A DNA stretch of 64,000 nucleotides, taken from Minisyncoccota bacterium (lineage in GTDB: Bacteria; Patescibacteriota; Minisyncoccia; Phycocordibacterales; UBA9973). Made by a program: the position numbers and the translations under genes. The stretch is from positions 1,099 through 65,098 of the forward strand of contig JBAZXO010000003.1 in assembly GCA_041659785.1 (NCBI GenBank), read 5' to 3'. Shown here one piece after another: positions 192 to 57,468 of this stretch (its first letter is position 1; each line of letters begins with the position of its first letter). Below the pieces are notes generated by a model, which saw only the letters and a list, made by a program, of their open reading frames with translations, did not search any database and was not told the origin of the DNA.

Positions 192-464
192 TTAAATTTC
201 AACTATTAAAAGTTTGCTAGGGTGATGATGCCCGTTCACAATCCGAACTTTATTTTTAGATATTTTGTAATGCTCTCTTATAATTTCTAGGATACGGTTA
301 TTCGCCATATTATTCTCTGCTTTTTCTTTTACTGAAATATCAAAATGGTCTGGTTTTTTTGCTTGCCCCGCTGGGCGGGGTGAAAAAATTTCTTTTTTAG
401 CCCCTGCTGTGACCTTCACATAGATATAAAAACTTTTCTGTATTTTATTTATTTTACCTGACAT
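192..464 (-). CDS. DUF167 (YggU-like) small protein
   Basis: 90-aa ORF with a KVTAGAKK...G-rich core typical of the UPF0235/DUF167 family. Overlaps the stop of the upstream protease gene by 16 nt. Contains GC-rich palindrome 366-380. Confidence 0.5.
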   Translation of the reverse strand: MSGKINKIQKSFYIYVKVTAGAKKEIFSPRPAGQAKKPDHFDISVKEKAENNMANNRILEIIREHYKISKNKVRIVNGHHHPSKLLIVEI

Positions 465-3751: not shown

Positions 3752-3780
3752 AATTCGTATTATATCATAGCAAAAAAATA

Positions 3781-4040
3781 AAGTGCAAATCCCCTCACCC
3801 CTTTCTTTCCCCTCTCCATAATTAAAATTATGGAGAGGGGTTGAGAGAAAATGCAACACAATCCCCTCACCCCTTTCTTTCCCCTCTCCATAATTAAAAT
3901 TATGGAGAGGGGTTGGGGAGAGGAGAATTAATTAAGAACCCTCTCTCCTTTAACCCCCTTACTCCCCCTTGTCAGGGGGAAACCATTTGCCTCCCCTGAT
4001 AAGGGGAGGTCGGGAGGGGTTGGAGAGAGGAGAGGAGAAT
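3781..4040. repeat. cluster of GC-rich hairpin repeats (two copies of a ~60-bp unit plus further palindromes)
   Basis: Unit aatcccctcacccctttctttcccctctccataattaaaattatggagaggggttg occurs twice (about 3781-3836 and 3856-3911). Each carries a 15-bp perfect inverted repeat cccctctccataatt/aattatggagagggg. Further hairpins: cccccttgtcaggggg and cctcccctgataaggggagg. Strongly GC-rich relative to surroundings. Confidence 0.8.
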
Positions 4041-7000
4041 TTAGGGAGTCGTTGGAGAAGGAGCTGGTACGGGATTAGGTGCTGGAGTAGGTACAGGATC
4101 AGGAACTGGGACTGGAGTTGGTGTAGGTACAGGAGCTGGTACTGGATCAACTACTGGTACTGGTGCGGGATCTGGAGTTGGGGTTGGGGCAGGAACAGGT
4201 GCTGGGGTAGGCGTAGGTGTGGGAGTTGGTGTGGGAGTTGGTAAAGAACCTGCGGGGTGTGCAAGCAAGAGCAATGCACGGACATCATCTTTCGTTAGAC
4301 ATTCGCCATCTATACAAATCTTTTCTTTTGCATTAAATACATTTGCAAACACATCCCCTATCCCATTTGTGGCATCTGCGAGCCAAGTGCCGACTTTCGC
4401 ATAAACATTATTAAAGAAGGCTGTTACGAAAGATTCAGTAGCGGGTGAAATAGTTTGTCCCGAACTTAGCTGAAGGGTGCCAGAAACTCCTTCAATATTT
4501 AAATTCATTTCTTGAATTGCTTTGACCGTGGTAGACAATATAGCATTCGTGTCTAATCCATAAGGCTTACCTTCTGCATCGTGGGTGGCAAATTCTGGAG
4601 TAACAGCAGCGACTTCTTCAGAGATGAATCCGAAATGGATTGCATTGCCTAAATTCATATCTCCGTTGAAAATATAAGAAACAGGACGAAGGGCCATGAC
4701 ACTAGGAAGCCCAGATGCAAGATCCGTTATAGTGTTTTTAAACTCTCTCCTCGATGGAGCACAAATTATATTTCCTGAAGCGTCAGCATTCAATCCTCCC
4801 GCCGTCGTACAACCTTTCTGCTGGACAACACCTGTATTGGTTACACTAAATTTACTTACCCCTCCCACCTGTGCATCAATCAAATATTGAACACCAGAAC
4901 CGACAGATGTTTCAGTCCTATTTATAAGCAAATCTATGTTGGCAGCAGTTGAAGTAACCTGGTTGTAAACTGGGGCGATTACAAGAGGAGATGTTGTGCC
5001 AGCTGTGTTGGTAAACGTTGGCAAAAGTTGAAATGGAACTTTACCAGCCGCTCCCGAAAATGTCTCATTTATGACAGATAAAATTCCACCAGTTAAAGGT
5101 GACAGATATGGTATTCTCAATGCACCAAGAGTACTTATAGTTGCTTTACTTACTCCGCCAAACTGAGCATCTAAAATTAAACCTGTTGAACCTGCATTAG
5201 CTTGATTTACAGTAAGAGCTGAATTTGCATCGGCAATATTTCTGGAAATTATAGTGCCAGTTGTAGATGAAAGAATAGTTGAATTATTTCCAGTAGCATT
5301 GTTAGATAATCCTAATGCATAAACTTTATCAGTAAGAGCTACATAATTGGCAGTTACAGCCCCCGTATTATCCACCTTAAATTTACTAACACTCCCCACC
5401 TGTGCATCAATCAAGAGCTGAGCACCAGAGCCGACGGCAGTTTCTACGCGGTTAATGAGCAAGTCTGTATTGGCGGCTGTACTTGCGACTTGATTATATG
5501 GTGCGTAAATTTGTACGATTGCCTGAGTGCCAGATGTGTTAGTTCGAGTAACACCTGACCCAATTCCAAGCAACGAACCTGAAGTAGTTCCGGAAGCGGA
5601 ATAGTTTGAATACAATCCTGAATTTGGCACTGATGATGGAGCTGCTGTAGAAGTGTAATAACTTGTTGTTGATATTATACCTCCAGCAATTATTCCACTA
5701 TTCATTGTCAATACTCCCGTTTTATTTACTGATATTAGATTTGTAGTTCCTGTTGCTCCACCGAGAATTTGAAGGGGTAATGCAGTAGCCGCAGAAGCTG
5801 TGTCAGTAATGGTGTATTTAATACCAACAGGTGCTCCTGTCGTATTCCAAGTCTGAGCAATATTTAATGCTGAGCCTGCAAGTGAACCCGAGCCAGCGAG
5901 AGTGGTGTCTAGGATGTCGAGTTTTGCAGTAGGTGTTGTTTGCCCTATCCCCACGTTGCCACCAATTCGCGTTATGGTTAGTGCGTTGCTATCAACAGAA
6001 GAATTACGAGCTGTAATATTTAAGTTACCCGTTGAACCTGAATAGAAAAAACCAAACCCATTAGCAGCACTGCTCCACGTAGTTGCCAAAGATTGAAATG
6101 ATAACGCTGGGATAATATCACTGTTGCCACTATTTATTTGGGTGGAAGCACCAGAGCTATTAGACAAAATAGACAAGAGACTTTGCGGTGTCGTCGTTCC
6201 TATCCCTACATTCCCCGTACTCCCTACTTGAAGTCCAGTATAAGCAATATTGTAAGCTTGGGAGGTAACAGTTTGAGAAGTGGAAACAGTGAGGCTTGTG
6301 GTTGAACCAAATGCAGTAATTGTTCCTGCACTTGTTCCGTTTGCAAATACGAATTGTGAACCCACCATAGCGGAAGTCCATACAGTACCCACACCTGTTA
6401 TTGTGGTCAGAGATTGTGAGGCTGTGCCTGTGCTGTACTGCGTAGGGGTTACAGAGAGGATACCACTGGGTGCTATCGTGCCAATGCCGACGTTGCCTGT
6501 ACTGTCTATCCTTAGACGATTTACTCCAGCAATTTGTAAATCCAAATTAAGAGGAGTGCTAATAATCGCTCTATCAGTATCCCAAGTTAATACACCTCGA
6601 CTGTTACCAGTTAAAGCTTGTCCCCATTGAAATACTCCGTCGCTACCCATTCCTCCTCTTTCACCAACTTGAAACAATAATGTAGGGTTCGTCGTCCCGA
6701 TACCGACGTTGCCGGTCGTGAGTACAGTTAATTTAGAATCAGATAAATTAATACCCGTACCAATCGAATACGCAGAATTACCTGCACCGCCGTTATAAGC
6801 CGTACCAGTCATCCAATCTGTCGTCCCGTTAGTAGCGTAGTTCGTAAGAGCAAAACGGGCAGTCGAAACACGGTTAAGCTCAACATTAGTGAAGCCTGCG
6901 GCATTCGTATTCTCAAATATCGCAGTTGGAAGCGTATCTGCAGAATTGCGTACGACATGCAAGTTTGCCGTCGGCCCCGTCGTCCCGATACCGACATTTC

Positions 7001-10000
7001 CTCCTCCTTGTTGTAAAACTAAATTTCCATAATTTACTCCTCCTCCAATAATATTATCAATCACTCCATAGGTATCTCCAGTTGCAGCACCATGTCCAAA
7101 TCTAAGAAGTGAACCAGCTGAACCGAATGTAAAAGTACTTGTAGTTGTATAAATTCCATTATTGGGGCTTGTTGGTACTTCTCTTACCTCAAACGCTGCA
7201 TTTGGTGTTGATGTTCCAACTCCTATCTTCCCATTCCCTAAAACTACCATTCTTGTCCCACCAACCAATGTGTATGAAAGTCCTGAAGCAGTTGTAGAAA
7301 ATGCTACAGAAACAGTTAATACTGTATCACTTGAGATTGTTGCAATTGTTCGAACAGTTTCCCCTGATACTGTTATGGTGTCACCCACCTTAAACATATT
7401 TATAAATTTGGTACTTGTACCAGTTAATGTAGTAGTTCCATTTGTAGCAACAGTTCCCACTCCAGCAGTTCCCTGGGCGACAGAGAAATTTGATGAACTA
7501 TTTCCTAAGCCCGTTACAGCAAGAGTCGTGCTAACACTCACATTCCCCGTGTTGGTTGCTAAAGATATATTTCCTGAACCTGCTCCATGTCCTATAAAGA
7601 TACTAGCATTAGGCCCAATATTTAAATCATTACTTGCATCAATGTCTGCCAATCTAAGATTGGCTGTATTTGCCGCATTCCTTACATAAAGACCACTAGT
7701 ATTACTGAGCAGAATATTTCCAGCCACTTCCAATTTCTGCACTGGGGCTGTTACACCTACCCCTAAATTACCACTAATTATCATATTTCCTGCTCCAGGG
7801 TCTGTTGCGACATAACTATTTCCAAGAGATAAACCACCCGTGGTGGTCAATCTCATTTTTTCTGTAGCAACTGCGAGGTTACTAGCTGAAGTATAAAATT
7901 GTTGTGTGTATCCTACCGTTCTAAAATGTAAAGCTCCACTATTGCTAGAATCAAAAGCATTCAAACTTATTGTATTTGCAACAGGTTTAGCACTGTATAA
8001 CGTAGCATCTGTTGCTTCACTTATTTCTAATTTACCCCTAGGCCCCGTTGTGCCAATGCCGACGTTTCCATTGCCTCCAATTGTTATTCCACCTATACCA
8101 TCATAAGCACTAGTTGGAGTTTCTATTCTTATGGCATTCACAGGATTTCCAGAAGTGACTTGTCTTCCTTGTAAAATTAATCCAACACCATTTACAGAAT
8201 TTCCTTGTCCTGCTACCAAATATCCATAAGGTGTGCCTGCACCGTATCTGCCCAAATAATATTTTCCAGATGAATCATCAAGAATTTCCGATGAACCATT
8301 CACACTCAATTTCTGTCCCGGCGTCACTGTTCCGATACCGACGTTGCCAGAAGTTGTCGCCATATTTACACCACCAAGAAAAGCAGAGGAGTTAACTGTG
8401 TCATCTATTAAAATTCTTTTAAGAGCATGTAAACCGTAATCACCTGAAGTAACATAAATACCATTTGCAGCTGAATTTACGCTTAAAGCGTAGTTAACAT
8501 TCCCAGCACCTCCCACACTTAATAAAGAAACCGGTGCCGTTGTCCCAATCCCGACATTCCCATTTGTATCAATCCTCATTTTTTCTGCACTGTTAATAGA
8601 AAATATATATTTTCCTAGAGTAGCAGAGGGTAAATCAAACGCCATTTGTGGAGAAGATGCTCCATATCCAGCAATAATATTTGCGTATTCTGTAGATGCT
8701 GCAAAAAATCCTACTTTAGCTAATGTATTTGCTCCAGTCCCATTGTTTGATAATCTAAGAACTTCAGTAGTTGTCCCTGAAGAAGAACTCACTACATCTA
8801 ATTTAGCAGATGGCCCCGTCGTTCCTATCCCGACACGTCCGTTCGTCGTATCAACATTCAAAACATTGGTCGTCCCATCTGCTTTGTTGATTTGAATTGC
8901 AGTAATGGAATCTACGGAAGGATAAATTTTATTTCCTATTAAAGATGCAATTGTCGGAGTCACTATTGTTGGACTCGTATCCACCACAAACTTTGTTCCT
9001 GTTCCTGTTTGTGAAGCGATAGATGTGGCATTACCGACGGAAGTTATAGGACCAGTTAAGTTTGCATTTGTAGTTGCAGAGTCTGCAAGAACTGCTCGTG
9101 CAACATAAAGATTCGGAACGAGCGTTGTAGAAGTGACAACAAGTGGAGCTGTACCAATAGCTAAAGTAGAAATGAATTGATTATCTGTACGAACAGATCC
9201 ACCGGAAACATCCAACTTCGCTCCTGGCGCCTTCGTCCCGATGCCAATATTTCCTGTTGAAATAGTTGCACCTGTTCCATCAAGTGCCGTACCGTAAATC
9301 AAGTTACCGATGTTAAGCTGATTTGAGGCAGTTGCACTTGCTACGGCTACGTCATTACCGATCGAAATGTTGTTAGAACCTGTGGTGACTTGGTTACGAG
9401 AAGCAGCAAGGGTCGAATTACCGAGAAATACATTGCGAGCACCAGTGGTGACACCATAGCCAGACTGATAACCGACGAAAGTGTTGTAGTCGGAGCCATT
9501 AGCCGCGCTAACTCCAGCAGTAAAGCCAACATATACGCCCCCTTGGTTGGTATATAAAGCTAGACCTTGCGCGGCAGAACGACCAATTGCAGTGACCGAA
9601 GTAGCTGCTGTATTATAAACGAGAGCATCTGTACCAGTGGCAGTACTGCCACTACCTGTAGTGTTGTATTTTAAAGAATCCGCACCAGTCGCAACATTGC
9701 CACCACCAGTAGTATTGTATTGAAGAGACCCTGCACCAGTCGCAGTACTCTGATATCCTGTAGTATTGGTATTTAAACTGTTGTAACCATAAGCGGTATT
9801 TTGAGTAGCGGTCGTGCTATTTTGAAGAGATCCTGAACCACTCGCGGTATTTTGAATACCAGTTGTATTTGAAAAAAGAGCTTGGTAGCCATTTGCAGTA
9901 TTTTGATAACCGATATCGTTTTGACTAAGAGCTAGAGCGCCACTTGCGGTGTTGTAATAACCGGTGGTATTTGCACCAAGAGAGTTCGCGCCACTTGCAG

Positions 10001-11495
10001 TGTTGTAATAACCTGTTGTATTAGGAGCAAGAGCGCTCTCACCTATTGCAGTGTTGGAAGAACCAGTAGTATTGGCATACAGAGCAACTAAACCGTATGC
10101 AGTATTTGAATTACCTACAGTATTAGAATAAAGAGCATTCTTACCACTTGCAGTATTGGAAGAACCTGAAGTGTTTGAATAAAGAGTGTTCTCACCAATA
10201 GCAGTATTGCTTTCACCTGTGGTGTTAGAATAAAGGGATTGATAACCAACTCCAACATTAAATCTACCAGTGGTGTTAGAAAAACCGCTTTGATAACCAA
10301 GGAAAGTATTTTGATATCCCGCATTCACGTTTCCCGCTTGATAACCAAGAGAAGTTCCTAGAGTTGTATTGTCAAAATTAATAAGATTTGCTACTTGAAT
10401 GGTATTGTTCGGTGTTACTGTACCTAATCCTAATCGATGACTCGTCGCATTATAAAATAAATTTGCATTGTCTTCTAAAATACCGCTCGCTCCTTGAAAA
10501 AAGACTGAACCGAGGGTGAGAGCAGGATTCATTGATCCAGTAACACTTCCAGTGATAGTTCCTGTGACATTCAAATTCCCGGTGAGAGTAGAATTACCTG
10601 TAACACTTAGACCTCCTCCCAAGACAGAGGTACCAGTAACGGTTAATTCTCCAATCTTCGCAGTGTTGGTAGTGAAATGATTTGAAGATAATTCAGTCGC
10701 AGAGAACATGCTTCCACCAGCAAAGTTAATAGCTGGATTGGGTTGAATAATACCAACGTTTCCGTAAGTTACAGGAATAGGAGCATAACCTCCACCCCCA
10801 GAAGATCCGCCCGCACTACCTGCAGGGCCAGCTGGACCTTGGGGCCCCACCGGTCCTGCAGGACCGGCGGGGCCTTGGATAGTGACAATTTTTGTCACAA
10901 CTGTTTGTGAAGGTGTAGCAGCAGACGTAGTAGTAGATAAAGTGGTGGGTGCTGGAGTTGGAGTATTTGCTTGAGTAAGAATAACACTAGTAGGAGCATG
11001 TACGGGCGGTACTACCTTACCCACAGACGTCGAAGTTTTATAACCTAAATTTTTTATACTTCCAGATAAGATTGAAGTGTAATTTTCATAAGTAGTATTT
11101 ACATATGTGGAATAATTATTATAAGTATTTGATATATTTTTAGATAAATCTTGTGATACACCTCTAAATATCTTGGATATATCCCCGACTGATTTCGCAA
11201 CATACTTTTTATAATCATTAAAAAATGAAGAAGTATTGTTTAAAATATTTGAAGCAATAACTTGTGCAGAAAGAGAAACTTTTACGGGTTGACGTTTTAT
11301 GACTGTTAAAGTTTTTTTAACTGGTTCCTTGGCTGGAGTAATAAAATTTTTGTATATGGTATTTAAACCAGAAATACTAAGATTATCAAAAGCAAAAATG
11401 GGAGTGGAGAAAGAAAAAATAAAAGCAAATAAAATAGCAAAAACAGCAAAAAACCTCAAAAAGGCTATTTTTCTATTAGGGAGTTTTTTTGCCAT
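4041..11495 (-). CDS. giant surface protein: collagen-like GPA repeat, beta-helix tail-fibre-like repeats, S74-type intramolecular-chaperone domain, C-terminal Pro/Thr-rich tail
   Basis: 2484 aa. N-terminal signal/anchor (FLRFFAVFAILFAFIFSFSTPIFAF). GPAGPAGPVGPQGPAGPAG repeat. Dozens of NTAxGxxAL/YSNTTGxxNTA repeats and GNVGIGTTxPxxKLxV motifs. Near the C-terminus, NIICAPSRREFKNTITDL...LDTNAILSTTVKAIQEMN resembles the phage tail-spike/endosialidase self-cleaving chaperone domain. Ends in a (PT)n / PVPAPTP tail. TAA stop. Confidence 0.8.
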   Translation of the reverse strand: MAKKLPNRKIAFLRFFAVFAILFAFIFSFSTPIFAFDNLSISGLNTIYKNFITPAKEPVKKTLTVIKRQPVKVSLSAQVIASNILNNTSSFFNDYKKYVAKSVGDISKIFRGVSQDLSKNISNTYNNYSTYVNTTYENYTSILSGSIKNLGYKTSTSVGKVVPPVHAPTSVILTQANTPTPAPTTLSTTTSAATPSQTVVTKIVTIQGPAGPAGPVGPQGPAGPAGSAGGSSGGGGYAPIPVTYGNVGIIQPNPAINFAGGSMFSATELSSNHFTTNTAKIGELTVTGTSVLGGGLSVTGNSTLTGNLNVTGTITGSVTGSMNPALTLGSVFFQGASGILEDNANLFYNATSHRLGLGTVTPNNTIQVANLINFDNTTLGTSLGYQAGNVNAGYQNTFLGYQSGFSNTTGRFNVGVGYQSLYSNTTGESNTAIGENTLYSNTSGSSNTASGKNALYSNTVGNSNTAYGLVALYANTTGSSNTAIGESALAPNTTGYYNTASGANSLGANTTGYYNTASGALALSQNDIGYQNTANGYQALFSNTTGIQNTASGSGSLQNSTTATQNTAYGYNSLNTNTTGYQSTATGAGSLQYNTTGGGNVATGADSLKYNTTGSGSTATGTDALVYNTAATSVTAIGRSAAQGLALYTNQGGVYVGFTAGVSAANGSDYNTFVGYQSGYGVTTGARNVFLGNSTLAASRNQVTTGSNNISIGNDVAVASATASNQLNIGNLIYGTALDGTGATISTGNIGIGTKAPGAKLDVSGGSVRTDNQFISTLAIGTAPLVVTSTTLVPNLYVARAVLADSATTNANLTGPITSVGNATSIASQTGTGTKFVVDTSPTIVTPTIASLIGNKIYPSVDSITAIQINKADGTTNVLNVDTTNGRVGIGTTGPSAKLDVVSSSSGTTTEVLRLSNNGTGANTLAKVGFFAASTEYANIIAGYGASSPQMAFDLPSATLGKYIFSINSAEKMRIDTNGNVGIGTTAPVSLLSVGGAGNVNYALSVNSAANGIYVTSGDYGLHALKRILIDDTVNSSAFLGGVNMATTSGNVGIGTVTPGQKLSVNGSSEILDDSSGKYYLGRYGAGTPYGYLVAGQGNSVNGVGLILQGRQVTSGNPVNAIRIETPTSAYDGIGGITIGGNGNVGIGTTGPRGKLEISEATDATLYSAKPVANTISLNAFDSSNSGALHFRTVGYTQQFYTSASNLAVATEKMRLTTTGGLSLGNSYVATDPGAGNMIISGNLGVGVTAPVQKLEVAGNILLSNTSGLYVRNAANTANLRLADIDASNDLNIGPNASIFIGHGAGSGNISLATNTGNVSVSTTLAVTGLGNSSSNFSVAQGTAGVGTVATNGTTTLTGTSTKFINMFKVGDTITVSGETVRTIATISSDTVLTVSVAFSTTASGLSYTLVGGTRMVVLGNGKIGVGTSTPNAAFEVREVPTSPNNGIYTTTSTFTFGSAGSLLRFGHGAATGDTYGVIDNIIGGGVNYGNLVLQQGGGNVGIGTTGPTANLHVVRNSADTLPTAIFENTNAAGFTNVELNRVSTARFALTNYATNGTTDWMTGTAYNGGAGNSAYSIGTGINLSDSKLTVLTTGNVGIGTTNPTLLFQVGERGGMGSDGVFQWGQALTGNSRGVLTWDTDRAIISTPLNLDLQIAGVNRLRIDSTGNVGIGTIAPSGILSVTPTQYSTGTASQSLTTITGVGTVWTSAMVGSQFVFANGTSAGTITAFGSTTSLTVSTSQTVTSQAYNIAYTGLQVGSTGNVGIGTTTPQSLLSILSNSSGASTQINSGNSDIIPALSFQSLATTWSSAANGFGFFYSGSTGNLNITARNSSVDSNALTITRIGGNVGIGQTTPTAKLDILDTTLAGSGSLAGSALNIAQTWNTTGAPVGIKYTITDTASAATALPLQILGGATGTTNLISVNKTGVLTMNSGIIAGGIISTTSYYTSTAAPSSVPNSGLYSNYSASGTTSGSLLGIGSGVTRTNTSGTQAIVQIYAPYNQVASTAANTDLLINRVETAVGSGAQLLIDAQVGSVSKFKVDNTGAVTANYVALTDKVYALGLSNNATGNNSTILSSTTGTIISRNIADANSALTVNQANAGSTGLILDAQFGGVSKATISTLGALRIPYLSPLTGGILSVINETFSGAAGKVPFQLLPTFTNTAGTTSPLVIAPVYNQVTSTAANIDLLINRTETSVGSGVQYLIDAQVGGVSKFSVTNTGVVQQKGCTTAGGLNADASGNIICAPSRREFKNTITDLASGLPSVMALRPVSYIFNGDMNLGNAIHFGFISEEVAAVTPEFATHDAEGKPYGLDTNAILSTTVKAIQEMNLNIEGVSGTLQLSSGQTISPATESFVTAFFNNVYAKVGTWLADATNGIGDVFANVFNAKEKICIDGECLTKDDVRALLLLAHPAGSLPTPTPTPTPTPTPAPVPAPTPTPDPAPVPVVDPVPAPVPTPTPVPVPDPVPTPAPNPVPAPSPTTP

Positions 11496-13313: not shown

Positions 13314-15410
13314 TTATTTCTTCTTAGGAGCTGGAGTAGTAATGACGGGTGCTGGAGCTGAAGTAGAACTACTTAATGAATTAACATATTGTATTAAGTT
13401 CTTGTCTTCGGGTGATAAACTCAATGCCGCCTGTGCATAAGAAAGTGCCATGCTGTTATTGCCTTCGCTCTTTGCTATTTGTGAAAGAGTAACTAGGGCA
13501 TCAAGATAATCTTGTTTAAGAGAAAGAGCGCTATTTGCATAATCTTTTGCTTCTTTAACCTTACCATCCACAAATGAAGCGCCAGCCATAGCAAGCTTTA
13601 AGCCTGGATTTAGTGGATTTAAATTCGAAGCTGCTTGATAAGCGAGCACTGCCTTGGCGTAAGAATCCTTGACTCCAAGTGAACCAACAGCTTGATAAGT
13701 AGAGCCAAGCAATTGGAAATTTAAATAATTTGAGGGATCATATGTAGTTGCTAACTGAGCACTGTTTATAGCCTGATCGAAGCTAGCTTGTAGATCAGCC
13801 TTTTCTGTATCAGATAGAGAAGAGCCCTTTTTAGCTATAGCATTTAACTTAACAAGATAAATTTGTGAATAGGTGCGCAGATATAAATCATTTGAATATA
13901 AAGAAAGCGCTTTGCTAATATAATCTTCAGCGCTCGGAACAGTCGTGGCAGAAAGCGCTTTACCGAAATAAGAGACAGAAACAAAACGCTGTATATATTT
14001 GAATGAAATTGCAGCGGAAAAGATCATCAAAATAATAAGTAAAAGAATGGAGAAGAAACTTTTCCTATGATCGTTCAAGAACGATACGGATATTTCTTTA
14101 CCTGAATTAGAGGAAGCTAAACCAATAAATACTCCAGTAAATGCAAGCGCTAACAGAAAGATCACTGCTCCTGTAAAGTAAAAGAATGAAGCAACAAATA
14201 AATACAGAGACAATACAAAGAATGCCATCATCTCCCAATTTACACCATTTTTTATACTAGAAAATACTGATTTTACTCCAATAAATAAAAACAAAACAAA
14301 AAACACAAGCCAAGCTAAAATACCCAAACCTCCAGTAGTAGCAACTAATGTGGGTAATAATCCAGAACCTGAATCAAAAGAAACATCCCAAAATTGAGTA
14401 TTGTTTATTGACCCTGGTTTAAACATTGACCACGCTTCTCCGAATCTATTTGGTCCGACACCTACTAAAGGATTTTTCATTAAGACTCCTTTGGTGATAG
14501 ACATGGTTGCACTCAAAGAAGGATTTATCTCAGTGTTTGATATTTGTAAACGATTTGGAATGATTCCACCAATGAATTGTCCAGAGATGAAAAACAATAA
14601 AGATATCATTACTACAACAAAAGAAATTACTGGAAAATGTTTTTTCTCACCTACTTCTTGGTTTTCCATATTTTCTCCGTTCTTCTGAAAAGTGATTGAA
14701 GCTTTGTAAACAAATATTATTAGACTAGAAATTCCAAGAAGTATCCAAACTAACTGAAAATTAACAGCAGCGATAAGCAAAACAGAAAGTAGAATTAATA
14801 TCTCTAAAAAAAGTTTTTCTATTTTAGAAATTGGGAAAAATTCAATAACTAAAAGAAACATCAAACCAGCGAAACCAGCGAAAAGACCGAGGGCATTCCA
14901 TGAACCTAATATATTACCTGTTTTCCCTGCTAAAATCCCAAGAGATAAGGCTGTAGGAGCAAACAAATGAATAGTTTGAAAAATTAAGACAAAAGCAGAA
15001 GATAATATGGCTCCAAGTAAAACTATTTTTGCTTGTTTGGTATTTTTAAAGATAACAGAAGACATCAGCATTAAAACAAAACCGGCAAAAATGAAGTAAA
15101 AGGACCCGATATCAAACATTGTTCCGAATAAGGAAACTTGAGAATTCCCAGATAAAAGAGAAGACAAAAGAAAAACCAAAACTATCCCCAATCCAGACAA
15201 GAGGAGTCGTGATTTAGGAAAAACTATTTTACCGTCAGAAAATCTAGCTATTGCCCAAAAGATCACACATGCCGCAAGACCCACGACTAAAAGTAATCCC
15301 TTAGAAGTTTCAATCGGAATGTTGGTAAAAGGCAAACAGAAAAGAGGCAACAACACAACAACTAAAAACAACACCCAAAATGAAAGTCTATCAAATATAT
15401 TTGAAAACAT
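13314..15410 (-). CDS. polytopic membrane protein, O-antigen ligase/Wzy_C-like domain with C-terminal TPR-like repeats
   Basis: At least 10 predicted TM helices. Periplasmic loop with NPLVGVGPNRFGEAW (the G-x-G-x-F of the WaaL/Wzy family). C-terminal about 250 aa of Ala/Leu-rich TPR-like repeats. Confidence 0.45.
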   Translation of the reverse strand: MFSNIFDRLSFWVLFLVVVLLPLFCLPFTNIPIETSKGLLLVVGLAACVIFWAIARFSDGKIVFPKSRLLLSGLGIVLVFLLSSLLSGNSQVSLFGTMFDIGSFYFIFAGFVLMLMSSVIFKNTKQAKIVLLGAILSSAFVLIFQTIHLFAPTALSLGILAGKTGNILGSWNALGLFAGFAGLMFLLVIEFFPISKIEKLFLEILILLSVLLIAAVNFQLVWILLGISSLIIFVYKASITFQKNGENMENQEVGEKKHFPVISFVVVMISLLFFISGQFIGGIIPNRLQISNTEINPSLSATMSITKGVLMKNPLVGVGPNRFGEAWSMFKPGSINNTQFWDVSFDSGSGLLPTLVATTGGLGILAWLVFFVLFLFIGVKSVFSSIKNGVNWEMMAFFVLSLYLFVASFFYFTGAVIFLLALAFTGVFIGLASSNSGKEISVSFLNDHRKSFFSILLLIILMIFSAAISFKYIQRFVSVSYFGKALSATTVPSAEDYISKALSLYSNDLYLRTYSQIYLVKLNAIAKKGSSLSDTEKADLQASFDQAINSAQLATTYDPSNYLNFQLLGSTYQAVGSLGVKDSYAKAVLAYQAASNLNPLNPGLKLAMAGASFVDGKVKEAKDYANSALSLKQDYLDALVTLSQIAKSEGNNSMALSYAQAALSLSPEDKNLIQYVNSLSSSTSAPAPVITTPAPKKK

Positions 15411-15476: not shown

Positions 15477-17867
15477 CTAGACAACTATGTTGATAAGTCT
15501 GTTTTTCACATAGATTACCTTTTTCACCGTCTTGCCCAATATGTGCTTCAAAACAGTCTCGTCTGATAATGCTTCCTTTTTTATTTTCTCTTCATCATCA
15601 TCCGCTCTTATCATGATCTCCGTTCTGAATTTGCCGTTTATTTGCACTACTATTTTTATCTCTTCATCTTCCATTAGACTTTTGTCTTCTTTGGGCCAGC
15701 TAGAAAGGTTGATTGATTTCTTTTCTCCTAACATACTCCACAATTCTTCTGTGACGTGTGGCGCAAATGGTGAAAGAATTTGCAAAAACTTTTTATAATC
15801 TTCGAGTTCAATATTTTCTGTCGTGCCAGAGGACAGGCAGGCCTTTTCCATCTCTGTCGCTAATATCATCATTGAAGAAATTGCGGTGTTGAAATACATA
15901 CCTTCAATGTCTTCTGTGACTTTTTTGATTGTTTTATTTAGTAATTTCGAAAGTTTCGGCACAGAAAAATTTGGGCCGTGTCGGAGCCCGCTTGCGGGTA
16001 AAGCGGACGAATTTTTTTGTGTCGAAACTTTTACACCTATTCTCCAAACTTTTTCAATGAATCTTCTTGAGCCAATGATACTTTCTGTAGACCAAGCGAC
16101 AGATTGACTAAATGGTCCCATAAACATCTCATAGACACGCAGAGTGTCAGCCCCGTATATTTTCACCATTTCGTCAGGATTGATAACATTTCCAAGCGAT
16201 TTTGACATCTTTACACCCCCTTCCCCCAAGATCATTCCATGAGAAGTGCGTTTTTTATACGGTTCAGCTGTAGGAACAAGCTTTAAATCAAATAAGAATT
16301 TATGCCAAAAACGTGAATACAAGAGATGGAGAGTAGTGTGCTCGTTACCTCCATTATACCAATTTACCCCGCCCGTGGCTGGGTCGCTTCCAAGCCAATA
16401 TTTTAAATTCTTTTTATTAGCAAATGTTTTTTTATTTTTTGGATCTGTATAACGAAGATAATACCAGCTAGACCCTGCCCAGTTTGGCATCGTATCTGTT
16501 TCCCTCAAGGCCCTCCCTTTACACTTGGGGCATTTTGTATTGACCCATTTTGTAATATTTGCTAAAGGTGACTCACCACTATCTGTGGGTTCATAATTTT
16601 TAACTTTTGGAAGTTCTACGGGTAAATCACGCTCCGGTACTGGAACAATGCCACACTTCTTACAATGTACGACAGGTATCGGCTCTCCCCAATATCGCTG
16701 ACGAGAAAATACCCAATCACGAAGCTTGAATTTTGTAATTTTTTTTCCAAAATCTTCAAAACCTGCTTTTTGATAATTTTCCACAATAGGCAATTTAAAT
16801 TTTTCTGCGAATTCTTTATCTCGTATATCATCAGCCGGCACGGCCATTATTGCTCCTGTGCCATAGTGTGGAAGGACATAGTCAGCTATCCATATTGAAA
16901 TCTCTTCTTTGTTTGCGGGATTAATTGCTTTAATACCCTTAAGCTCTATCCCCGTCTTTACTTTGTCTGTAGAGGTGCGTTCTATGTCTGTTTTGTTTTT
17001 TACTTCTTTAATATATTTCTCAACTTCACTCCAGTTTTTTATTTTATCTTTTAATTCTTTTACCAACTCATGTTCTGGTGCAAGGACTAAATAAGTCGCC
17101 CCGAAAATGGTATCTGGACGTGTTGTAAACACCCGGACACCAGGTGTCCGGGTGGGGATAACTATTTTAAAATCTATTTCAGCACCTTCGCTTCTTCCTA
17201 TCCAGTTTCTCTGAGCTAATTTTATTTGTGGTAAATAGTCTACAGTATCTAAATCCTTATCGAGCCTGTCAGCATATTTTGTAATAGCGAGCATCCATTG
17301 TTCTTTTTCCCTTTTCTCTACAGGAGTTCCACACCTTTCACAAAGGCCACCGACGACTTCTTCATTTGCAAGCCCCGTCTTATCCTTCGGACACCAATTA
17401 ATCGTCATTTTAGCCTTATAAGCTAAGCCTTTTTTCAAAAACTGAAGAAATATCCACTGAGTCCATTTATAATACTTTGGGTCAGTTGTGTTTATTTCTC
17501 GTGACCAGTCAAAAGAAATGCCCAAAGACTTTATTTGTCTTCGAAAATTATCGGTATTTTTTTTAGTTACCACCCTTGGATCCTTGCCTGTTTTTATGGC
17601 AAAGTTTTCTGTCGGTAAACCAAAGGCATCCCAACCAATTGGGTATAAAACATTAAAACCTTGCAATCTTCTTTTCCTAGAAATAATATCCATGCCTACA
17701 TACGAACGAGGGTGTCCGACATGAAGCCCATCTCCTGATGGGTATGGAAATTCTATCAAGCTAAAATATTTAGGTTTTTTCGAAAAATCCTTGGCTTGGT
17801 ATGTTTTATTCTTATCCCAAACATTTTGCCACTTTTTTTCTATTTTTTTATGGTCGTATTCTTTCAT
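15477..17867 (-). CDS. leuS: leucyl-tRNA synthetase
   Basis: 796 aa. HVGH (HIGH-class) motif, PIGWDAFGLPTEN, VFTTRPDTIFGATYLVLAPEH, LHLLYSRFWHKF, KMSKSLGN motif. Contains GC-rich palindromes at 15987-15998, 16364-16385 and 17132-17152. Confidence 0.95.
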   Translation of the reverse strand: MKEYDHKKIEKKWQNVWDKNKTYQAKDFSKKPKYFSLIEFPYPSGDGLHVGHPRSYVGMDIISRKRRLQGFNVLYPIGWDAFGLPTENFAIKTGKDPRVVTKKNTDNFRRQIKSLGISFDWSREINTTDPKYYKWTQWIFLQFLKKGLAYKAKMTINWCPKDKTGLANEEVVGGLCERCGTPVEKREKEQWMLAITKYADRLDKDLDTVDYLPQIKLAQRNWIGRSEGAEIDFKIVIPTRTPGVRVFTTRPDTIFGATYLVLAPEHELVKELKDKIKNWSEVEKYIKEVKNKTDIERTSTDKVKTGIELKGIKAINPANKEEISIWIADYVLPHYGTGAIMAVPADDIRDKEFAEKFKLPIVENYQKAGFEDFGKKITKFKLRDWVFSRQRYWGEPIPVVHCKKCGIVPVPERDLPVELPKVKNYEPTDSGESPLANITKWVNTKCPKCKGRALRETDTMPNWAGSSWYYLRYTDPKNKKTFANKKNLKYWLGSDPATGGVNWYNGGNEHTTLHLLYSRFWHKFLFDLKLVPTAEPYKKRTSHGMILGEGGVKMSKSLGNVINPDEMVKIYGADTLRVYEMFMGPFSQSVAWSTESIIGSRRFIEKVWRIGVKVSTQKNSSALPASGLRHGPNFSVPKLSKLLNKTIKKVTEDIEGMYFNTAISSMMILATEMEKACLSSGTTENIELEDYKKFLQILSPFAPHVTEELWSMLGEKKSINLSSWPKEDKSLMEDEEIKIVVQINGKFRTEIMIRADDDEEKIKKEALSDETVLKHILGKTVKKVIYVKNRLINIVV

Positions 17868-18476: not shown

Positions 18477-18941
18477 AAAAAATTTGAAGAATTCTCAAAA
18501 AAATTAACTTATTGGATTGGCTCACCGCAGTCCATCTTACTTCATACCGTCTTTTTTGGAGGTATTTTTATTTTGAGATTTTTTGGAGTTGCATCTTCTG
18601 AAATATTGCTTATTTTGACTACGATTGTATCATTAGAAGCTATCTACCTCTCCATCTTCATTCAAATGACCGTAAATAAACATGCTGAAGAGCTTGAAGA
18701 AGTTTCCGAAGATATCGACGAGATTCAAAAAGACGTCGATGAGATTCAGGAAGATGTGGAAGGTATTGAAAAAGATGTGGATGAGATTCAAAAAGACGTG
18801 GATGAGATTCAGGAAGATGTGGAAGACATTGAAGAAGTAAAACCGAAACTCATTTTTGAAAAAATAGAAAAAAATCTACAAGATTTAATGGTAGAAATAT
18901 CTGAACTTAAAAAGAAAAGTGAAAATAAGTCTAAAGAGTAG
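18471..18941 (+). CDS. small membrane protein with acidic coiled-coil tail built from a 66-nt tandem DNA repeat
   Basis: Two N-terminal TM helices, then (DEIQKDVDEIQEDVEGIEKDV)x2 encoded by a near-perfect 66-nt direct repeat about 18719-18850. Divergent from the 17874-18476 gene. Confidence 0.45.
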   Translation: MHKKFEEFSKKLTYWIGSPQSILLHTVFFGGIFILRFFGVASSEILLILTTIVSLEAIYLSIFIQMTVNKHAEELEEVSEDIDEIQKDVDEIQEDVEGIEKDVDEIQKDVDEIQEDVEDIEEVKPKLIFEKIEKNLQDLMVEISELKKKSENKSKE

Positions 18942-19881
18942 CCCACACAGCAGTATTAGCAAGAGATACGATACGATTGTTCGATTTTTCTAAGACACAA
19001 AGTTCACCTTGTTCTATATGTCCCTTGAAATCCCCGCCTAGGCGGGCAGGCTTCAGGGCATTATCTAATGCATAGCCCAAAGAAAGAGAGGAGGAGTCCA
19101 CTGCATAAGAGGTTAAAATAACAAAAAGTGGTTTATCGCTCAAAACTTTCTGCACCTGTAAAAGAAGCTTCGGCAACATTTCTTCTAGCTTCCATATCTC
19201 TCCCTTAGGTCCCCTGCCAAACTTCGGCGGGTCCATAATCACACAGTCATATTTATTCCCTCTTTTTTCTTCCCTCTCTAGAAATTTAATAGCATCATCT
19301 TCTATAATACGCATTGGTAAATCTTTTAGGTCACCATTCATTTCTTGGTTTTCTTTAGCCCATTTTAAAGTTTGCTTAGATGCATCCAGATGTGTAACTT
19401 CTGCACCTGCACGAAGAGCAAAAAGGCTTGCGACTCCAGTATATCCAAAAAGATTTAGAAACTTTATAGGTTTCTTTGCATTTTTAATTTTCTCCTCTAT
19501 AAAATCCCAATGGCTCGCTTGTTCAGGAAAAAATCCCAAATGTCTAAAGGGTGTAGGTGAAGCTAAAAACTTTACCCCTTTATAAGACATCTCCCATTTT
19601 TTATCCTTGTCAAACATCGGGTGTTTGACAAAAGTCCAGCCAGCTTTTGCCCCAGTTTTAGAGCTCCAAAATTTACCATCTGCCTTTTTCCACATTTGTT
19701 GAACACTCGGTGTTGAACATTTGGGCCAGACGGCATCTTCGTATGGACGCACGAAAGTATATTTACCAAATTTTTCTAACTTCTCTCCCTCTCCTGTATC
19801 TAGAAGCTGATAGTCATTTTCACCCGCCGACGAGGAGGGCCAATCTTTTGCACAAAAAATGCTTATATCTTTTTTTATCAT
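18931..19881 (-). CDS. class I SAM-dependent rRNA methyltransferase (RlmI/RlmK-like)
   Basis: NLFGYTGVASLFALRAGAEVTHLD (SAM-binding motif I) and IMDPPKFGRG (DPPxF motif IV) typical of RlmI-type 23S rRNA m5C methyltransferases. Contains palindrome cccgcctaggcggg at 19032-19046. Confidence 0.6.
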   Translation of the reverse strand: MIKKDISIFCAKDWPSSSAGENDYQLLDTGEGEKLEKFGKYTFVRPYEDAVWPKCSTPSVQQMWKKADGKFWSSKTGAKAGWTFVKHPMFDKDKKWEMSYKGVKFLASPTPFRHLGFFPEQASHWDFIEEKIKNAKKPIKFLNLFGYTGVASLFALRAGAEVTHLDASKQTLKWAKENQEMNGDLKDLPMRIIEDDAIKFLEREEKRGNKYDCVIMDPPKFGRGPKGEIWKLEEMLPKLLLQVQKVLSDKPLFVILTSYAVDSSSLSLGYALDNALKPARLGGDFKGHIEQGELCVLEKSNNRIVSLANTAVWATL

Positions 19882-20699
19882 ATTAAAAATTCAATTACGT
19901 CGCCATCTTGTACGATATATTCTTTACCCTCAGTTCGGACCCAACCTTTTTCACGGGCTTTAGCGAAACTCCCTGCTTCAATCAACTGATCATATGATAC
20001 CACTTCTGCACGAATAAACTTCTGCTCGAAATCTGTATGTATCGAACGGCCAGCAAAAGGTGCTGTCGCCCCACGCAAAGTGGTCCAAGCCCTGGATTCA
20101 TCTTCGCCTGTCGTAAAAAAAGTAATCAAATTTAATAAATTATATCCGGCCTTAATAAGGTTATCTAAACCTGTACCAAAAATCGGATCAACTTCTAGGT
20201 ATGGCCCAGGGAGCTTAGATATGAAATCTTTTTTTACATTCTCTGCTGCTTCTGAAGTGTTTAAAACATAAAGCGTGGGTTTTTTAATTCCCGCTTGTTC
20301 TAATTCAAAATTTATAACCTCTATATCAAAAAGTGGATCAATATGATCGTGAACATGAATCATATCTTTATCTTCAAAAATTCGCACAACTTCGATAATC
20401 GCATCCACCTCACGTATATGTGAAAGAAATTTATTACCGAGTCCTGCCCCTGTAGATGCGCCCTTTACAAGCCCGGCGATATCTACAAACTCCACCACTG
20501 CTGGAATAGTTTTCTTTGATTTAGATATAGCAGATAATTTAAGAAGTCTATCATCTGGCACAGGTACGATACCGACAGAAGGATCAATAGTACAAAAAGG
20601 ATAATTCTCTGCCGGCACACCCTTCTTAGTAAGAGCATTAAAAAGCGTGGATTTTCCCACGTTTGGCAGACCTACGATTCCGATTGATAGTGAAGACAT
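19878..20699 (-). CDS. ychF: Obg-family ATPase YchF (short form)
   Basis: N-terminus IGIVGLPNVGKSTLFNALT (G1), DIAGLVKGAS (G3), C-terminal TGS-like DGDVIEFLI. 273 aa. Start overlaps the 3' end of the upstream recombinase ORF by about 60 nt. Confidence 0.8.
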   Translation of the reverse strand: MSSLSIGIVGLPNVGKSTLFNALTKKGVPAENYPFCTIDPSVGIVPVPDDRLLKLSAISKSKKTIPAVVEFVDIAGLVKGASTGAGLGNKFLSHIREVDAIIEVVRIFEDKDMIHVHDHIDPLFDIEVINFELEQAGIKKPTLYVLNTSEAAENVKKDFISKLPGPYLEVDPIFGTGLDNLIKAGYNLLNLITFFTTGEDESRAWTTLRGATAPFAGRSIHTDFEQKFIRAEVVSYDQLIEAGSFAKAREKGWVRTEGKEYIVQDGDVIEFLI

Positions 20700-22284: not shown

Positions 22285-22289
22285 ATTTT

Positions 22290-54431: not shown

Positions 54432-54559
54432 ATAATTTTTTTGATATATTCCCCACTAGGCGGGGCAAGTTATTAATTTAAGTAAAAAAATAGTAAAAAA
54501 TATCCCTTTGAGGGATATTTAAATAGCACGAAAAAGCGCATGCTTAATACGTGCCAATA

Positions 54560-55122: not shown

Positions 55123-57468
55123 TTATAATTTCTTACTTTTAATACGTAATGAATTTCCGACTACCGACACAGAGGACATTGCCATGGCGAACCCTGCAAA
55201 TACCGGTGAAAGCAACCAACCGAATATCGGATAAAACAATCCTGCGGCAAGAGGAATACCAACAACATTATAAAAGAATGCCCAGAAAAGATTCTGCTTT
55301 ATTCCGAGCATTGTTATCCTCGAAAGTTTTATTGCTTTTACAAGCTTTGAAATATCTCCACCGAGAAGCGTAATGCCTGCTGATTCGATAGCCACATCCG
55401 TACCCGTCGCCATGGCAATACCCACATCTGCTTGCGCAAGAGCAGGAGCATCATTTACTCCGTCCCCTGCCATAGCTACAACCTTTCCTTCCGACTGAAG
55501 TTCTTTTATTTTGTTTAGTTTATCTTCCGGCATTGCCTCCGCTACAATTTCATCAATACCAATAAGTTTTGAAATATAGTTTGCTGTATTTTTATTGTCT
55601 CCAGTAAGCATTACAATTTTTATGCCAAGCTTGTGGAGATTTTTCACCGCTTCAATTGCTTCAGGCTTTATAGCGTCAGCTATCATAAATATCCCTAATA
55701 CCGAACTTTTATCTGTGAGAATAACGGGTGTCTTGCCTTCTAATGTTTCTTTCTCTAATAACTCACGATCAAAATTTAATTTTAGATCTTCAACTAATTT
55801 TGTATTACCGGCAAAATATTCTGTACCATTAAATGTTCCTCTTAATCCTTTGCCTTTTATAATTTCAAAATTTGAGATCTCATCGATTTTTATGTTTTTA
55901 CTTGCCCCGCCGTGGCGTGGGTCTTTTGCGTAATTAATTATTGCATGAGCAATAGGATGTTCTGATTTATTTTCCAACATTGTAAGGATTGAAACAATTT
56001 CATTATCCGTTTTATTTGAAAAATTCTTAATTGAAATGAGTTCTGGGCGCCCGTTAGTTAAGGTTCCAGTTTTGTCTACTACGACGACGTTTACTTTATG
56101 CAATTTCTGAAGTGTTGCTGCATCTTTGATTAAAATTCCTTCTTTCGCTCCTTTACCTACACCCACAATAATAGCTGTAGGAGTCGCGAGTCCAAGTGCA
56201 CACGGACAGGCAATAACAAGTATACCTACGAAGGAAACTAAGCCGAAAGAAAGTGCTTGAGAGAAACCTAAATATTGCGTTCCAAGAATAAGCCATAAAC
56301 CAAGCGTAACAATGGCTATGCCTAAAACGATAGGCACAAAAACACTTGATATTTTATCAGCTAATGCCTGTATCGGCGCCTTGCTGCCTTGCGCTTCTTC
56401 TACCATCTTTACTATATGAGCAAGAAGAGTTTCCCCGCCGACTTTTGTCGCCTTAAAAGTAAAAGAACCCGTAGTATTTATCGTCCCAGACACAACATTA
56501 TCACCTTCTTTTTTTTCTACTGGCATCGGCTCGCCTGTCACCATTGATTCATCTACATAAGATACGCCAGATACAACAACGCCATCTACTGGAATTTTGC
56601 CAGCTGGTTTTACTACAATTAAATCTCCATGAACCACTTCTCCTATGGGTATTTCAATCTCTTTCTCATCTCTAATCACAAGAGCTGTCTTTGCTTGTAA
56701 ATTTAAAAGTTTTTCTATTGCATCTCCAGTTTTTAGTTTTGATCGTGTTTCAAGATATTTACCAAGAGTGATAAAAGCGATGACCACGATAGCCACATCA
56801 TAATAACTTTGATTAACATTTAAAAAGGGTTTAAGGCTTTCTTCGAAAGCGCTAAGGATAAAACTATAAAGCATAGCGACAGAAGTACCGAGGCCAATGA
56901 GTGTATCCATGTTGGCTTTTCCATAACGTAAAAATCTGTACAAACCAAGTAAGTATGGTTTCCCCACTACGAACAGAGTATAGGTAGCGAGTATTGGTAA
57001 AAGATGATGGAAAAATTCACTCCAGAAATAAGACATCTCCGTGACAAGGTTAAACCTTGTCAAAATATCCCAAGTCATTACAAAAATACTAATGATGACA
57101 ATAGGAATAAGGGAAAAGAGTTTATTCCTCATTTCTTTTAATTCTGCAAGTTTTTCTTTTTTTGTTTGATTAAGTCCGAGGTGTTCGGCATGTTCACTTT
57201 CACTCATGCCCATTTCGCTCGCAGTCATCTCACCATGATCCATTTTATTATCATCCTGATTTGCAACTATAGTGTAGCCAAGGTGTTCTAATTTCTTATT
57301 AAATTGATCAAGATTCGTTTTACTCTCATCGAAAGAAATTTTTGCATTTTCGGTACCTGGATTAACAGATATATCCTCTACTCCATCAATTTTTTTGACA
57401 GTTCTTTCTATTATACTGGCACATGAAGCACAGTGCATTCCTTTTACATTGTACGTTTCTTTTTTCAT
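55123..57468 (-). CDS. copA: copper-translocating P1B-type ATPase
   Basis: N-terminal [20 protein letters not shown] motif ([12 protein letters not shown]), DKTGTLT phosphorylation site, [10 protein letters not shown] hinge. 781 aa. Confidence 0.9.

Follow-up and report, generated by a model that had tools for sequence, protein, structure and literature searches.

Short CTTG/CAAG-tagged hairpins inserted in frame into genes of a Minisyncoccota bacterium, and their possible relation to REP/RAYT systems

We analysed a 64-kb stretch of DNA (64,000 nucleotides, hereafter the window) from a Minisyncoccota bacterium (GenBank assembly GCA_041659785.1, contig JBAZXO010000003.1, positions 1,099 to 65,098 of the forward strand). 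The window has a G+C content of 35%, and its minus strand carries nearly all genes. It harbors five copies, here named S1 to S5, of a GC-rich hairpin built around CCCCGC and usually followed on one side by the tetranucleotide CAAG (CTTG on the other strand). The copies are 18-28 nt long. Four of them (S1, S3, S4 and S5) are located within open reading frames (ORFs), and S2 is the sole intergenic copy.

S1 (362..383, minus strand, sense) is found in a DUF167 gene at 192-464 and reads TCA-CCCCGC-CCA-GCGGGG-CAAG. Its hairpin is perfect, with 6 bp (CCCCGC-TGG-GCGGGG on the plus strand) and a predicted energy of -11.4 kcal/mol. S1 encodes S-P-R-P-A-G-Q for a net gain of 18 nt; the insertion itself is 3n+1 bases long and is offset by the loss of one base in the neighbouring A run. 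In an AlphaFold model of the DUF167 protein, S1 falls in the loop that joins strand 25-28 to strand 39-43, the block in which model confidence is lowest.

S2 (54451..54469, plus strand; CCCCAC-TAG-GCGGGG-CAAG) is located 20 nt upstream of the start codon of a gene encoding a DsbD_TM/CcdA-like protein (53562-54431) and downstream of the terminator-like hairpin of the preceding gene. Its hairpin has one mismatch, which is a G.U pair on the minus strand. It should be noted that S2 lies in a 3.1-kb block (51966-55092), together with genes for a protein without Pfam match, a redoxin and the CcdA-like protein and a 130-aa ORF, and that this block is missing from the otherwise syntenic locus L001, where window position 55093 is fused straight to 51965 (L-numbers denote loci of related genomes that were compared with the window).

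S3 (55901..55921, minus strand; CCCACGCC-AC-GGCGGGG-CAAG) is a 21-nt in-frame insertion in copA (55123-57468). The full insert on the minus strand is CCCACGCCACGGCGGGGCAAG, and it adds the peptide P-R-H-G-G-A-S to the nucleotide-binding domain of CopA. The hairpin of S3 is imperfect, with 6-7 pairs and one mismatch. S4 (19033..19050; CCCGCC-TA-GGCGGG-CAGG) is an 18-nt in-frame insertion in a gene for a SAM-dependent methyltransferase (18931-19881). It is oriented on the plus strand, antisense to its gene, which reads it as P-A-R-L-G-G. S5 (16367..16394, minus strand; CTTGGAAGCGA-CCCAGCC-ACG-GGCGGGG(-TAAA)) is a diverged copy in leuS, the leucyl-tRNA synthetase (LeuRS) gene at 15477-17867. Here LGSDPATGG replaces TP, a net gain of seven residues (21 nt).

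Predicted folding gave stems of 5-7 pairs for all five copies, with a core of about -9 to -11 kcal/mol; S4 reached -15.2 kcal/mol, its flanks also being paired in the prediction. The best conserved portion across the five copies is the 3' arm with the tag. The tag is exactly CAAG in S1 to S3 and in at least ten copies in relatives, and is CAGG in S4 and TAAA in S5. The original prediction, made from the letters of the window, had proposed that a 10-mer recurs at three sites as part of a hairpin. All three sites exist and all fold, with a perfect stem only at S1, and the folding check suggested with that prediction yields stable hairpins. The gene assignments DUF167, CopA, CcdA-like and methyltransferase were all correct. 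The 14-bp palindrome CCCGCCTAGGCGGG in the methyltransferase gene is also present, at 19033-19046. The third 10-mer site, given as 54456-54465, was off by 4 and is in reality 54460-54469, and the fifth, diverged copy in LeuRS was absent from the prediction and was found by a hairpin scan.

The 10-mer CTTGCCCCGC occurs exactly three times in the window, at 362-371 and 55901-55910 on the plus strand and at 54460-54469 on the minus strand. Only 0.02 copies are expected, and none of 100 dinucleotide shuffles contained three or more. Under a base-composition model it ranks first for over-representation among the 10-mers with at least three copies. Allowing two mismatches, CCCCGC-N3-GCGGGG is found at three sites (366-380, 19032-19046 and 54451-54465), against an expectation of 0.08. 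The claim that chance recurrence is very unlikely stands for this particular 10-mer. It weakens when GC-rich 10-mers as a whole are taken into account: a 10-mer with 8 or more G/C reached three or more copies in 8, 14 and 37 of 200 windows simulated with Markov models of order 1, 3 and 5, respectively (4-18% of simulated windows), and in 38 of 300 runs of a block-wise simulation. After this correction the triple occurrence is only marginally significant. Since the counts alone are weak in simulation, our finding rests on the comparison of orthologs and not on statistics.

All four intragenic copies are net insertions of 18-21 nt relative to orthologs (18, 21, 18 and 21 nt for S1, S3, S4 and S5), and every host ORF remains open. 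The window derives from a Paceibacteria-type genome of the Patescibacteria, and the closest CopA loci come from metagenome-assembled genomes (MAGs) of Paceibacterota, Nomurabacteria and Zambryskibacteria. For S3, exactly 21 nt are missing in L001, L002 and L008, and the flanks align cleanly; L001 is syntenic with the window at 84% nucleotide identity. For S1, we found 58 orthologous DUF167 loci with readable DNA. The site is empty (TTT^AARCAAAA) in 43 of these and filled in 15, where the same spot carries CCCCGC(C)(C)-loop-(G)(G)GCGGGG-CAAG, whose loop measures 2-9 nt, or a decayed version. S1 is absent from L085 and from L082, the closest relative (96.6% identity over the aligned 1,453 nt, ~98% outside the indel), and the site is filled in the more distant L081 (86% identity). 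S4 is absent from L105, L161 and the ~86% identical L174, and S5 from L105 and L161. Among 106 LeuRS proteins of the clade with a readable S5 site, 66 have the short form W-TP-VDW, 25 a 9-residue form LG[SN]DP..GG, and 15 other or longer forms that appear to be nested insertions. The leuS gene of L174 has a perfect-hairpin version, CCCCGCC-ACG-GGCGGGG, at the S5 site. When all window-specific insertions of at least 18 nt with a G+C fraction of at least 0.67 were collected, only S3 was recovered against L001, and only S4 and S5 against L105. Target-site duplications were not visible at the four sites with an empty-site comparator.

The original prediction had named a homologous protein motif common to the host genes as the observation that would speak against it. 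The ortholog comparison proposed alongside it instead found each intragenic copy missing from relatives. Moreover, the copies encode different peptides (AGQ in DUF167, GGAS in CopA and, antisense, PARLGG in the methyltransferase), and as they lie in differing frames and on both strands, with one of them intergenic, a shared protein motif is excluded. The in-frame insertions thus support the proposed family of tiny hairpins that coding frames tolerate.

Other insertions were seen in the same host genes of relatives. The S5 position of LeuRS is a hot spot, where other homologs carry segments of 13-34 residues. In L129 (1642-1710), a 69-nt double hairpin, CCCCCTCCC-gaa-GGGAGGGGG plus TCCTCTCC-ttt-GGGGAGGA, occupies this position. 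Many LeuRS proteins of the clade have lengths of 920-1350 aa and contain NUDIX, DUF559 or hydrolase domains as insertions. The methyltransferase ortholog of L105 contains a 93-nt in-frame insertion (~1175-1267) with perfect ~21-bp terminal inverted repeats (GAGAATTCTGGAAAGAATTTTT...AAAAATTCTTTCCAGAATTCT). This insertion, which is not found in the window, resembles miniature inverted-repeat transposable elements (MITEs) or Rickettsia palindromic elements (RPEs).

The same element is also found at unrelated places in other Paceibacteria-type genomes. A 19-mer of the copA insertion in the window, GACCCACGCCACGGCGGGG, is identical to the leuS insertion of an unrelated MAG (L173); the leuS copy of the window itself differs from it by a small indel and one substitution. 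S2 has 18 nt, ATTAATAACTTGCCCCGC, in common with an unrelated intergenic site in L155, where a hairpin with CAAG precedes another gene, ~20 nt before its start codon. In both L111 and L138, a hairpin with CAAG is found ~200 bp ahead of the 16S rRNA gene. The 10-mer CTTGCCCCGC was found in none of 80 CopA loci of other genomes.

Judged from their distribution, the copies differ in age. S3 and S4 are young, as they are absent at 84-86% identity, and S5 is old and widespread. S1 is polymorphic inside a species-level cluster. Around S1, the window and L082 have approximately 9 extra differences within 100 nt, and the window and L081 are nearly identical there, which indicates that the S1 allele was exchanged by homologous recombination. 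In a weakly resolved DUF167 tree, filled and empty alleles are interleaved. The DUF167 copy of the window equals that of L086 minus 6 nt, an in-frame trim.

We searched for an enzyme that could mobilise such hairpins, with emphasis on the tyrosine transposases associated with repetitive extragenic palindromic sequences (REPs), known as RAYTs. The first lead was one weak tblastn match in L160, obtained with approximate RAYT/IS200 probes, and Pfam confirmed it. The gene (L160:6705-7379) encodes a Y1_Tnp protein of 224 residues (Pfam E 1.3e-8) with the HUH motif PNHFHIL, and a homolog is found at 753-1421 in L128. The family has 7119 homologs at E <=1e-10. The best 120 of these share 60-88% identity, and every one of the 120 with a named source belongs to the Candidate Phyla Radiation (CPR). 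The Y1 gene is single and lies amid housekeeping genes in L160, L128, L165, L168 and L171 (10001-10663 in the last three). A structure model of the protein, with a predicted local distance difference test score (pLDDT) of 82, had the Escherichia coli RAYT-REP complex 4ER8 as its best fold match (E 4.9e-5), the sole match at E <=0.001, and IS200/IS605 transposases ranked next. Sequence and profile searches of the PDB with the Y1 protein gave no match.

Short hairpins bracket the Y1 gene on both sides, and more copies occur in nearby intergenic spacers. RAYTs have been described with this layout, the REPtron (PMC3733652, PMC3116915). The flanking hairpins are CTTG-CTAGG-CAAGA-CCTAG-CAAG in L160, inverted copies of TTGCTAGGC-AAG-GCCTAGCAA in L165-167, GACTAGG-TCCGA-CCTAGTC in L168-170, CCGACTAGG-TCTTG-CCTAGTCGG in L171/172, and an inverted pair of AAAACGGACGCC-TG-GCGTTCGTTTT in L128. 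Several of them carry CTTG/CAAG, and RAYT-like genes flanked by CTTG-bearing hairpins thus exist in the clade. The Y1 gene of L128 also carries a copy of its flanking palindrome inside itself, at 1027. In addition, L165, a relative among the Zambryskibacteria, harbors a second CTTG-tagged family, CTTG-GAAAC-CGA-GTTTC-CAAG, as singlets and inverted doublets (7511-7556, 13341-13387, 13631-13679 and 18788-18812). These copies are in frame in genes for LepA, an aminoacyl-tRNA synthetase (twice) and thioredoxin reductase, where they encode peptides such as LETxFPSALGNxVS. Altogether, the CTTG/CAAG tag stands beside different stems in three hairpin families of the clade, in parallel to the GTAG of classical REPs.

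Based on these observations, we consider it probable that the CCCCGC copies represent a miniature, non-autonomous, REP-like palindromic element that is tagged with CTTG/CAAG and was probably moved as single-stranded DNA by a RAYT-type HUH/Y1 enzyme. The insertions, their recurrence at independent sites and in independent genomes and their presence/absence polymorphism are direct observations; that a RAYT-like enzyme moved this family, and did so through single-stranded DNA, we infer. The unit would be a GC-rich hairpin of 6-8 bp, CCCCGC(C)-loop-(G)GCGGGG, with the unpaired tetranucleotide CTTG 5' of it at one end (CAAG 3' on the other strand). Its likeliest mover would be a host-encoded HUH/Y1 tyrosine enzyme of the RAYT type. 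Enzymes of this kind recognise a hairpin together with the tetranucleotide next to it in single-stranded DNA, which they cut and rejoin without duplicating the target; the lack of a visible target-site duplication is what is expected of HUH/Y1 enzymes. Copies would have landed at unrelated chromosomal places. Within genes, the survivors would be those that keep the frame in permissive surface loops, encoding 6-7 extra residues rich in Pro, Arg, Ala and Gly. Once fixed, copies would pass to descendants by vertical inheritance and between related lineages through homologous recombination; they would also undergo in-frame trimming and in the end decay.

Several observations weigh against this explanation. 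The window itself has no RAYT-like or other transposase gene, as searched with Pfam on ~50 ORFs and with tblastn. The stems of the hairpins that flank the Y1 gene (CTAGG..., CGGACGCC...) differ from CCCCGC, and none of these hairpins is found in the window. They are also extragenic, while four of the five window copies are intragenic. Five copies of the CCCCGC family were counted, within the 64 kb, and the four reconstructed empty sites (n=4) have no common target sequence or consensus. In ~0.9 Mb of related DNA, CAAG follows GC-rich hairpins at 2.96 per 1000, against ~1 for an average tetranucleotide, but this enrichment is not exceptional when the DUF167 duplicates are left out, several other tetranucleotides being equally high, and we do not use it as proof. 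Finally, both arms are preserved exactly in nine of the 13 distinct filled DUF167 alleles, whereas identity at the third codon positions of the gene is only 46%; as the intact alleles were picked by motif, the comparison of arms with third positions is partly circular. The remaining four alleles (L087, L102, L119 and L128) are decayed with the extra loop retained. This bimodality is a sign of acquisition that was recent or recurrent, of conversion or of constraint at the DNA level, and the intact arms could equally reflect selection on function rather than selfish spread.

The hairpin could accordingly be a functional cis element, that is, a selected site at which a dimeric protein binds the DNA, or an RNA hairpin acting in mRNA stability, processing or transcription, whose spread into genes was secondary. 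The arms CCCCGC and GCGGGGCAAG that are identical in these nine alleles of divergent genomes would fit such a role, as would the stability of the hairpins and the comparable positions of intergenic copies, ~20 nt before a start codon in both the window and L155 and ~200 bp before the 16S rRNA gene in L111 and L138. However, copies occur on either strand relative to the host gene, with S4 antisense, so a role at the RNA level cannot be general. Close relatives live without S1, S3 and S4, and in the four decayed alleles the hairpin was lost while the loop was kept; the changes on both arms in L087 are non-compensatory. The several decayed copies in DUF167 likewise leave the second half of the original prediction, a selected recognition or structural site, less supported than the first. 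At S2 no promoter or terminator consensus was found besides the neighbouring terminator, nor did any copy have an Rfam match, and a functional site would still require a mechanism of insertion. We regard this explanation as unlikely.

We find it slightly less credible still that the 18-21-nt hairpins are remnants of longer MITE-like insertions, or of insertions resembling REPINs (doublets of inverted REPs), which were reduced by internal deletion, so that the short unit itself never moved. Pseudomonas REP singlets have been viewed as decayed REPINs (PMC3116915), larger palindromic in-frame insertions are present in relatives (the 69 nt of L129, the 93 nt of L105 and the doublets of L165), and the DUF167 copy of the window is that of L086 shortened by 6 nt. 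The sequences of the larger insertions are unrelated to the hairpin, however, and no long form of the CCCCGC family was found at any site in ~1 Mb of related DNA; S3 and S4, though young, show a minimal, clean form. Small palindromes could instead arise de novo by template switching or snap-back synthesis during replication or repair, the shared 10-mer being coincidental or compositional. In line with this, other indels between the window and L001 are small palindromes of unrelated sequence (62126-62150, 48913-48939 and L001:9641), and the triple 10-mer is of marginal significance after correction. We nevertheless hold it to be very improbable, as template switching copies nearby sequence, whereas the flanks here are AT-rich and unrelated to the insert with no local donor evident, and the same 10-19 nt recur at independent sites in independent genomes. 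The simplest reading, a chance repeat or a conserved peptide common to the proteins, draws on the simulated windows in which some GC-rich 10-mer reached three copies, and we give it next to no weight. It is refuted by the ortholog alignments, in which the intragenic copies are absent, and by the differing frames and strands, the intergenic copy and the lack of the 10-mer in the other CopA loci.

Further candidates were rejected. The motif belongs to no known RNA, as Rfam at the gathering threshold matched only a LOOT RNA elsewhere in the window, and no tRNAs were found. Scans for a promoter or terminator role of S2 gave only the adjacent terminator-like, AT-rich hairpin at 54520-54498. Intrinsic terminators are not indicated, as the other copies lie inside ORFs and have no T run directly after the stem. 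The location of S2 and S3 in a copper cluster raised the possibility of a metal-regulator operator, but this does not agree with the unrelated host genes of S1, S4 and S5, nor with S3 being inserted within copA. DNA uptake sequences (USS/DUS) consist of one short oriented motif, occur about once per kb and arise by point substitution, which does not fit three exact copies in 64 kb that arose by insertion. MITEs derived from IS200/IS605 (palindrome-associated transposable elements, PATEs) have distinct left and right hairpins on either side of an internal segment and insert 3' of a fixed target of four or five nucleotides, whereas the copies are single hairpins and the empty sites share no target. 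Finally, the collagen-like palindrome at 10845-10872 is a coding repeat, and near-matches at 2074, 42823, 43673 and 56429 are coding repeats or conserved P-type ATPase sequence; all lack the hairpin with tag.

The window and its relatives contain other palindromes. Just after the stop codon of a gene for a 2484-aa protein, an intergenic array of GC-rich hairpins is found at 3780-4045. In brief, it consists of two ~72-bp repeats with CCTCTCCATA-attaaaat-TATGGAGAGG (3811-3838 and 3883-3910), followed by TCCCCCT-tgtc-AGGGGGA (3963-3980) and CCTCCCCT-gata-AGGGGAGG (3990-4009). The TCCCCCT and CCTCCCCT hairpins are also present in L171 (4598 and 5455), where they bracket a pair of DUF559 genes. The 2484-aa protein (4041-11495, minus strand) has collagen-like G-P-x repeats (e.g. 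~10820-10900) and a Peptidase_S74 (endosialidase chaperone) domain, and its repeats account for several repeated GC-rich k-mers unrelated to the hairpin family. A second palindrome family in the window has the core CAGACG/CGTCTG. At 62108-62150, downstream of an SBP_bac_5 gene, it forms a REPIN-like doublet, CCAGACGCTCCTCGTCTGG-GAT-CCAGACGAGGAGCGTCTGG, of which 25 nt are missing in L001. At 48909-48942 the palindrome is the C-terminal tail of a HlyD-like gene, and 27 nt are missing in L001. A perfect palindrome with 10-bp arms, CATATACCCC-ctg-GGGGTATATG (57744-57766), is located in the 5' end of the csoR-like ORF (57469-57780) that precedes copA and probably is the CsoR operator. Near the csoR-like ORF of L001 (~9641) there is a different palindromic insertion of 26 nt, CCCCTATCCC-a-GGGATAGGGG. 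Relatives also have a 20-bp palindrome, CCTGCCTGCCGGCAGGCAGG, with flanking TATA, as well as TCCGCC-N3-GGCGGA, frequently arranged in tandem or following a T run; these further sites are at 11341 in L097, 12057 in L161, 4964 in L002 and 5944 in L103, and at 15989-16018 in L002 and 12440-12469 in L008.

The region 20638-37000 is a probable integrated island with a lower G+C content (0.30-0.33) and restriction-modification genes. It encodes a large serine recombinase (20638-22284), an S49 peptidase, a NOV_C protein, C5 and N4/N6 DNA methylases, a helicase with an AlwI-like endonuclease domain, and ResIII and Z1-domain proteins. The LOOT RNA (RF03000; 26247-26368, minus strand) is full length, scores 68 bits against a gathering threshold of 46, and is the only Rfam match of the window.

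The usual description of the genomes of CPR bacteria (Patescibacteria) is that they are streamlined and contain little mobile DNA. Contrary to this picture, tiny palindromic elements have repeatedly entered essential genes (leuS, copA and the methyltransferase gene) of a CPR bacterium, the insertions are polymorphic among near-identical strains, and a conserved RAYT-like family, flanked by hairpins of its own, is widespread among its relatives. Provided that the link to the enzyme is true, the biology of REPs and RAYTs reaches a major uncultivated radiation with a new recognition tag, CTTG, that is biochemically testable, and the short lineage-specific loops of CPR proteins have a simple origin. 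More tentatively, and with the balance of our judgement somewhat against it, CTTG/CAAG may define a third superfamily of tagged palindromes in Paceibacteria-type CPR, beside GTAG and CGTC, with a conserved, divergent clade of RAYTs. This superfamily would count hairpins of 15-21 nt, the smallest mobile units seen so far, among its members, which would persist mainly as in-frame loops in essential genes (LeuRS, CopA, LepA and other aminoacyl-tRNA synthetases) and be maintained as DNA sequence, through function, homing or biased conversion, well beyond synonymous saturation. It would then be a significant source of protein-loop innovation in reduced genomes. In practical terms, the insertions may be used as strain markers and call for caution in alignment-based phylogenomics of CPR proteins.

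Among known systems, the GC clusters of yeast mitochondria are GC-rich palindromes of 30-50 bp in an AT-rich genome, polymorphic among strains and sometimes located in coding sequence. The window copies are likewise short GC-rich palindromes scattered in AT-rich DNA, polymorphic and sometimes coding, but the yeast clusters are longer, belong to a eukaryotic organelle and have another proposed mechanism that involves no HUH enzyme. Small dispersed repeats (SDRs) of heterocyst-forming cyanobacteria (Elhai et al. 2008) are said to be hairpin repeats of 21-27 nt, recognised as insertions by ortholog comparison; reportedly, no smaller mobile-looking elements have been described, and they are abundant and for the most part lie between genes or nested in one another. 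Size range, hairpin and insertion behaviour are alike; phylum and sequences differ, as do the abundance of SDRs and their mostly intergenic or nested position. We know of no defined CTTG tag in SDRs. RPEs (Ogata et al. 2000) are reportedly ~100-150 bp long and add 30-50 residues in frame to housekeeping genes. They share with our copies the character of palindromic selfish DNA that lies in frame in housekeeping genes of a small AT-rich genome, adds a surface peptide and spares the protein. They differ in being tagged with CGTC, unrelated in sequence and five to seven times longer than the 18-21 nt and 6-7 residues seen here. RPE-1 is taken up in PMC3733652.

REPs are hairpins of 20-40 bp with a tetranucleotide tag that are linked to RAYTs and sometimes intragenic, and the known superfamilies are tagged GTAG and CGTC (PMC3733652; PMC3116915); the structure of a RAYT-REP complex is available as PDB 4ER8. 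Neither CTTG nor CAAG appears in the text of PMC3733652, and our literature search found no paper joining RAYT or REPIN with CPR terms. The window copies differ from REPs in the tag and in the size of the unit, which at 15-21 nt is at or below the lower limit of REPs (PMC3733652). They are singlets and not doublets in the form of REPINs or bacterial interspersed mosaic elements (BIMEs), and they are mostly intragenic, whereas REPs are predominantly extragenic and often downstream of genes. Their host is a CPR bacterium with a small AT-rich genome, and the hairpins flanking the RAYT genes of its clade have stems other than CCCCGC. The likeness to REPs lies in a GC-rich palindrome that is short and imperfect and carries on one side a conserved tetranucleotide left unpaired; in dispersed copies without target duplication, some of them in frame within genes, as occasionally in REPs; and in presence/absence polymorphism (S1 empty in L082 at ~98% identity, S3 in L001 at 84% and S4 in L174 at ~86%). 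It extends to the hairpin-flanked RAYT-like genes found in the clade, whose product has a predicted fold closest to 4ER8.

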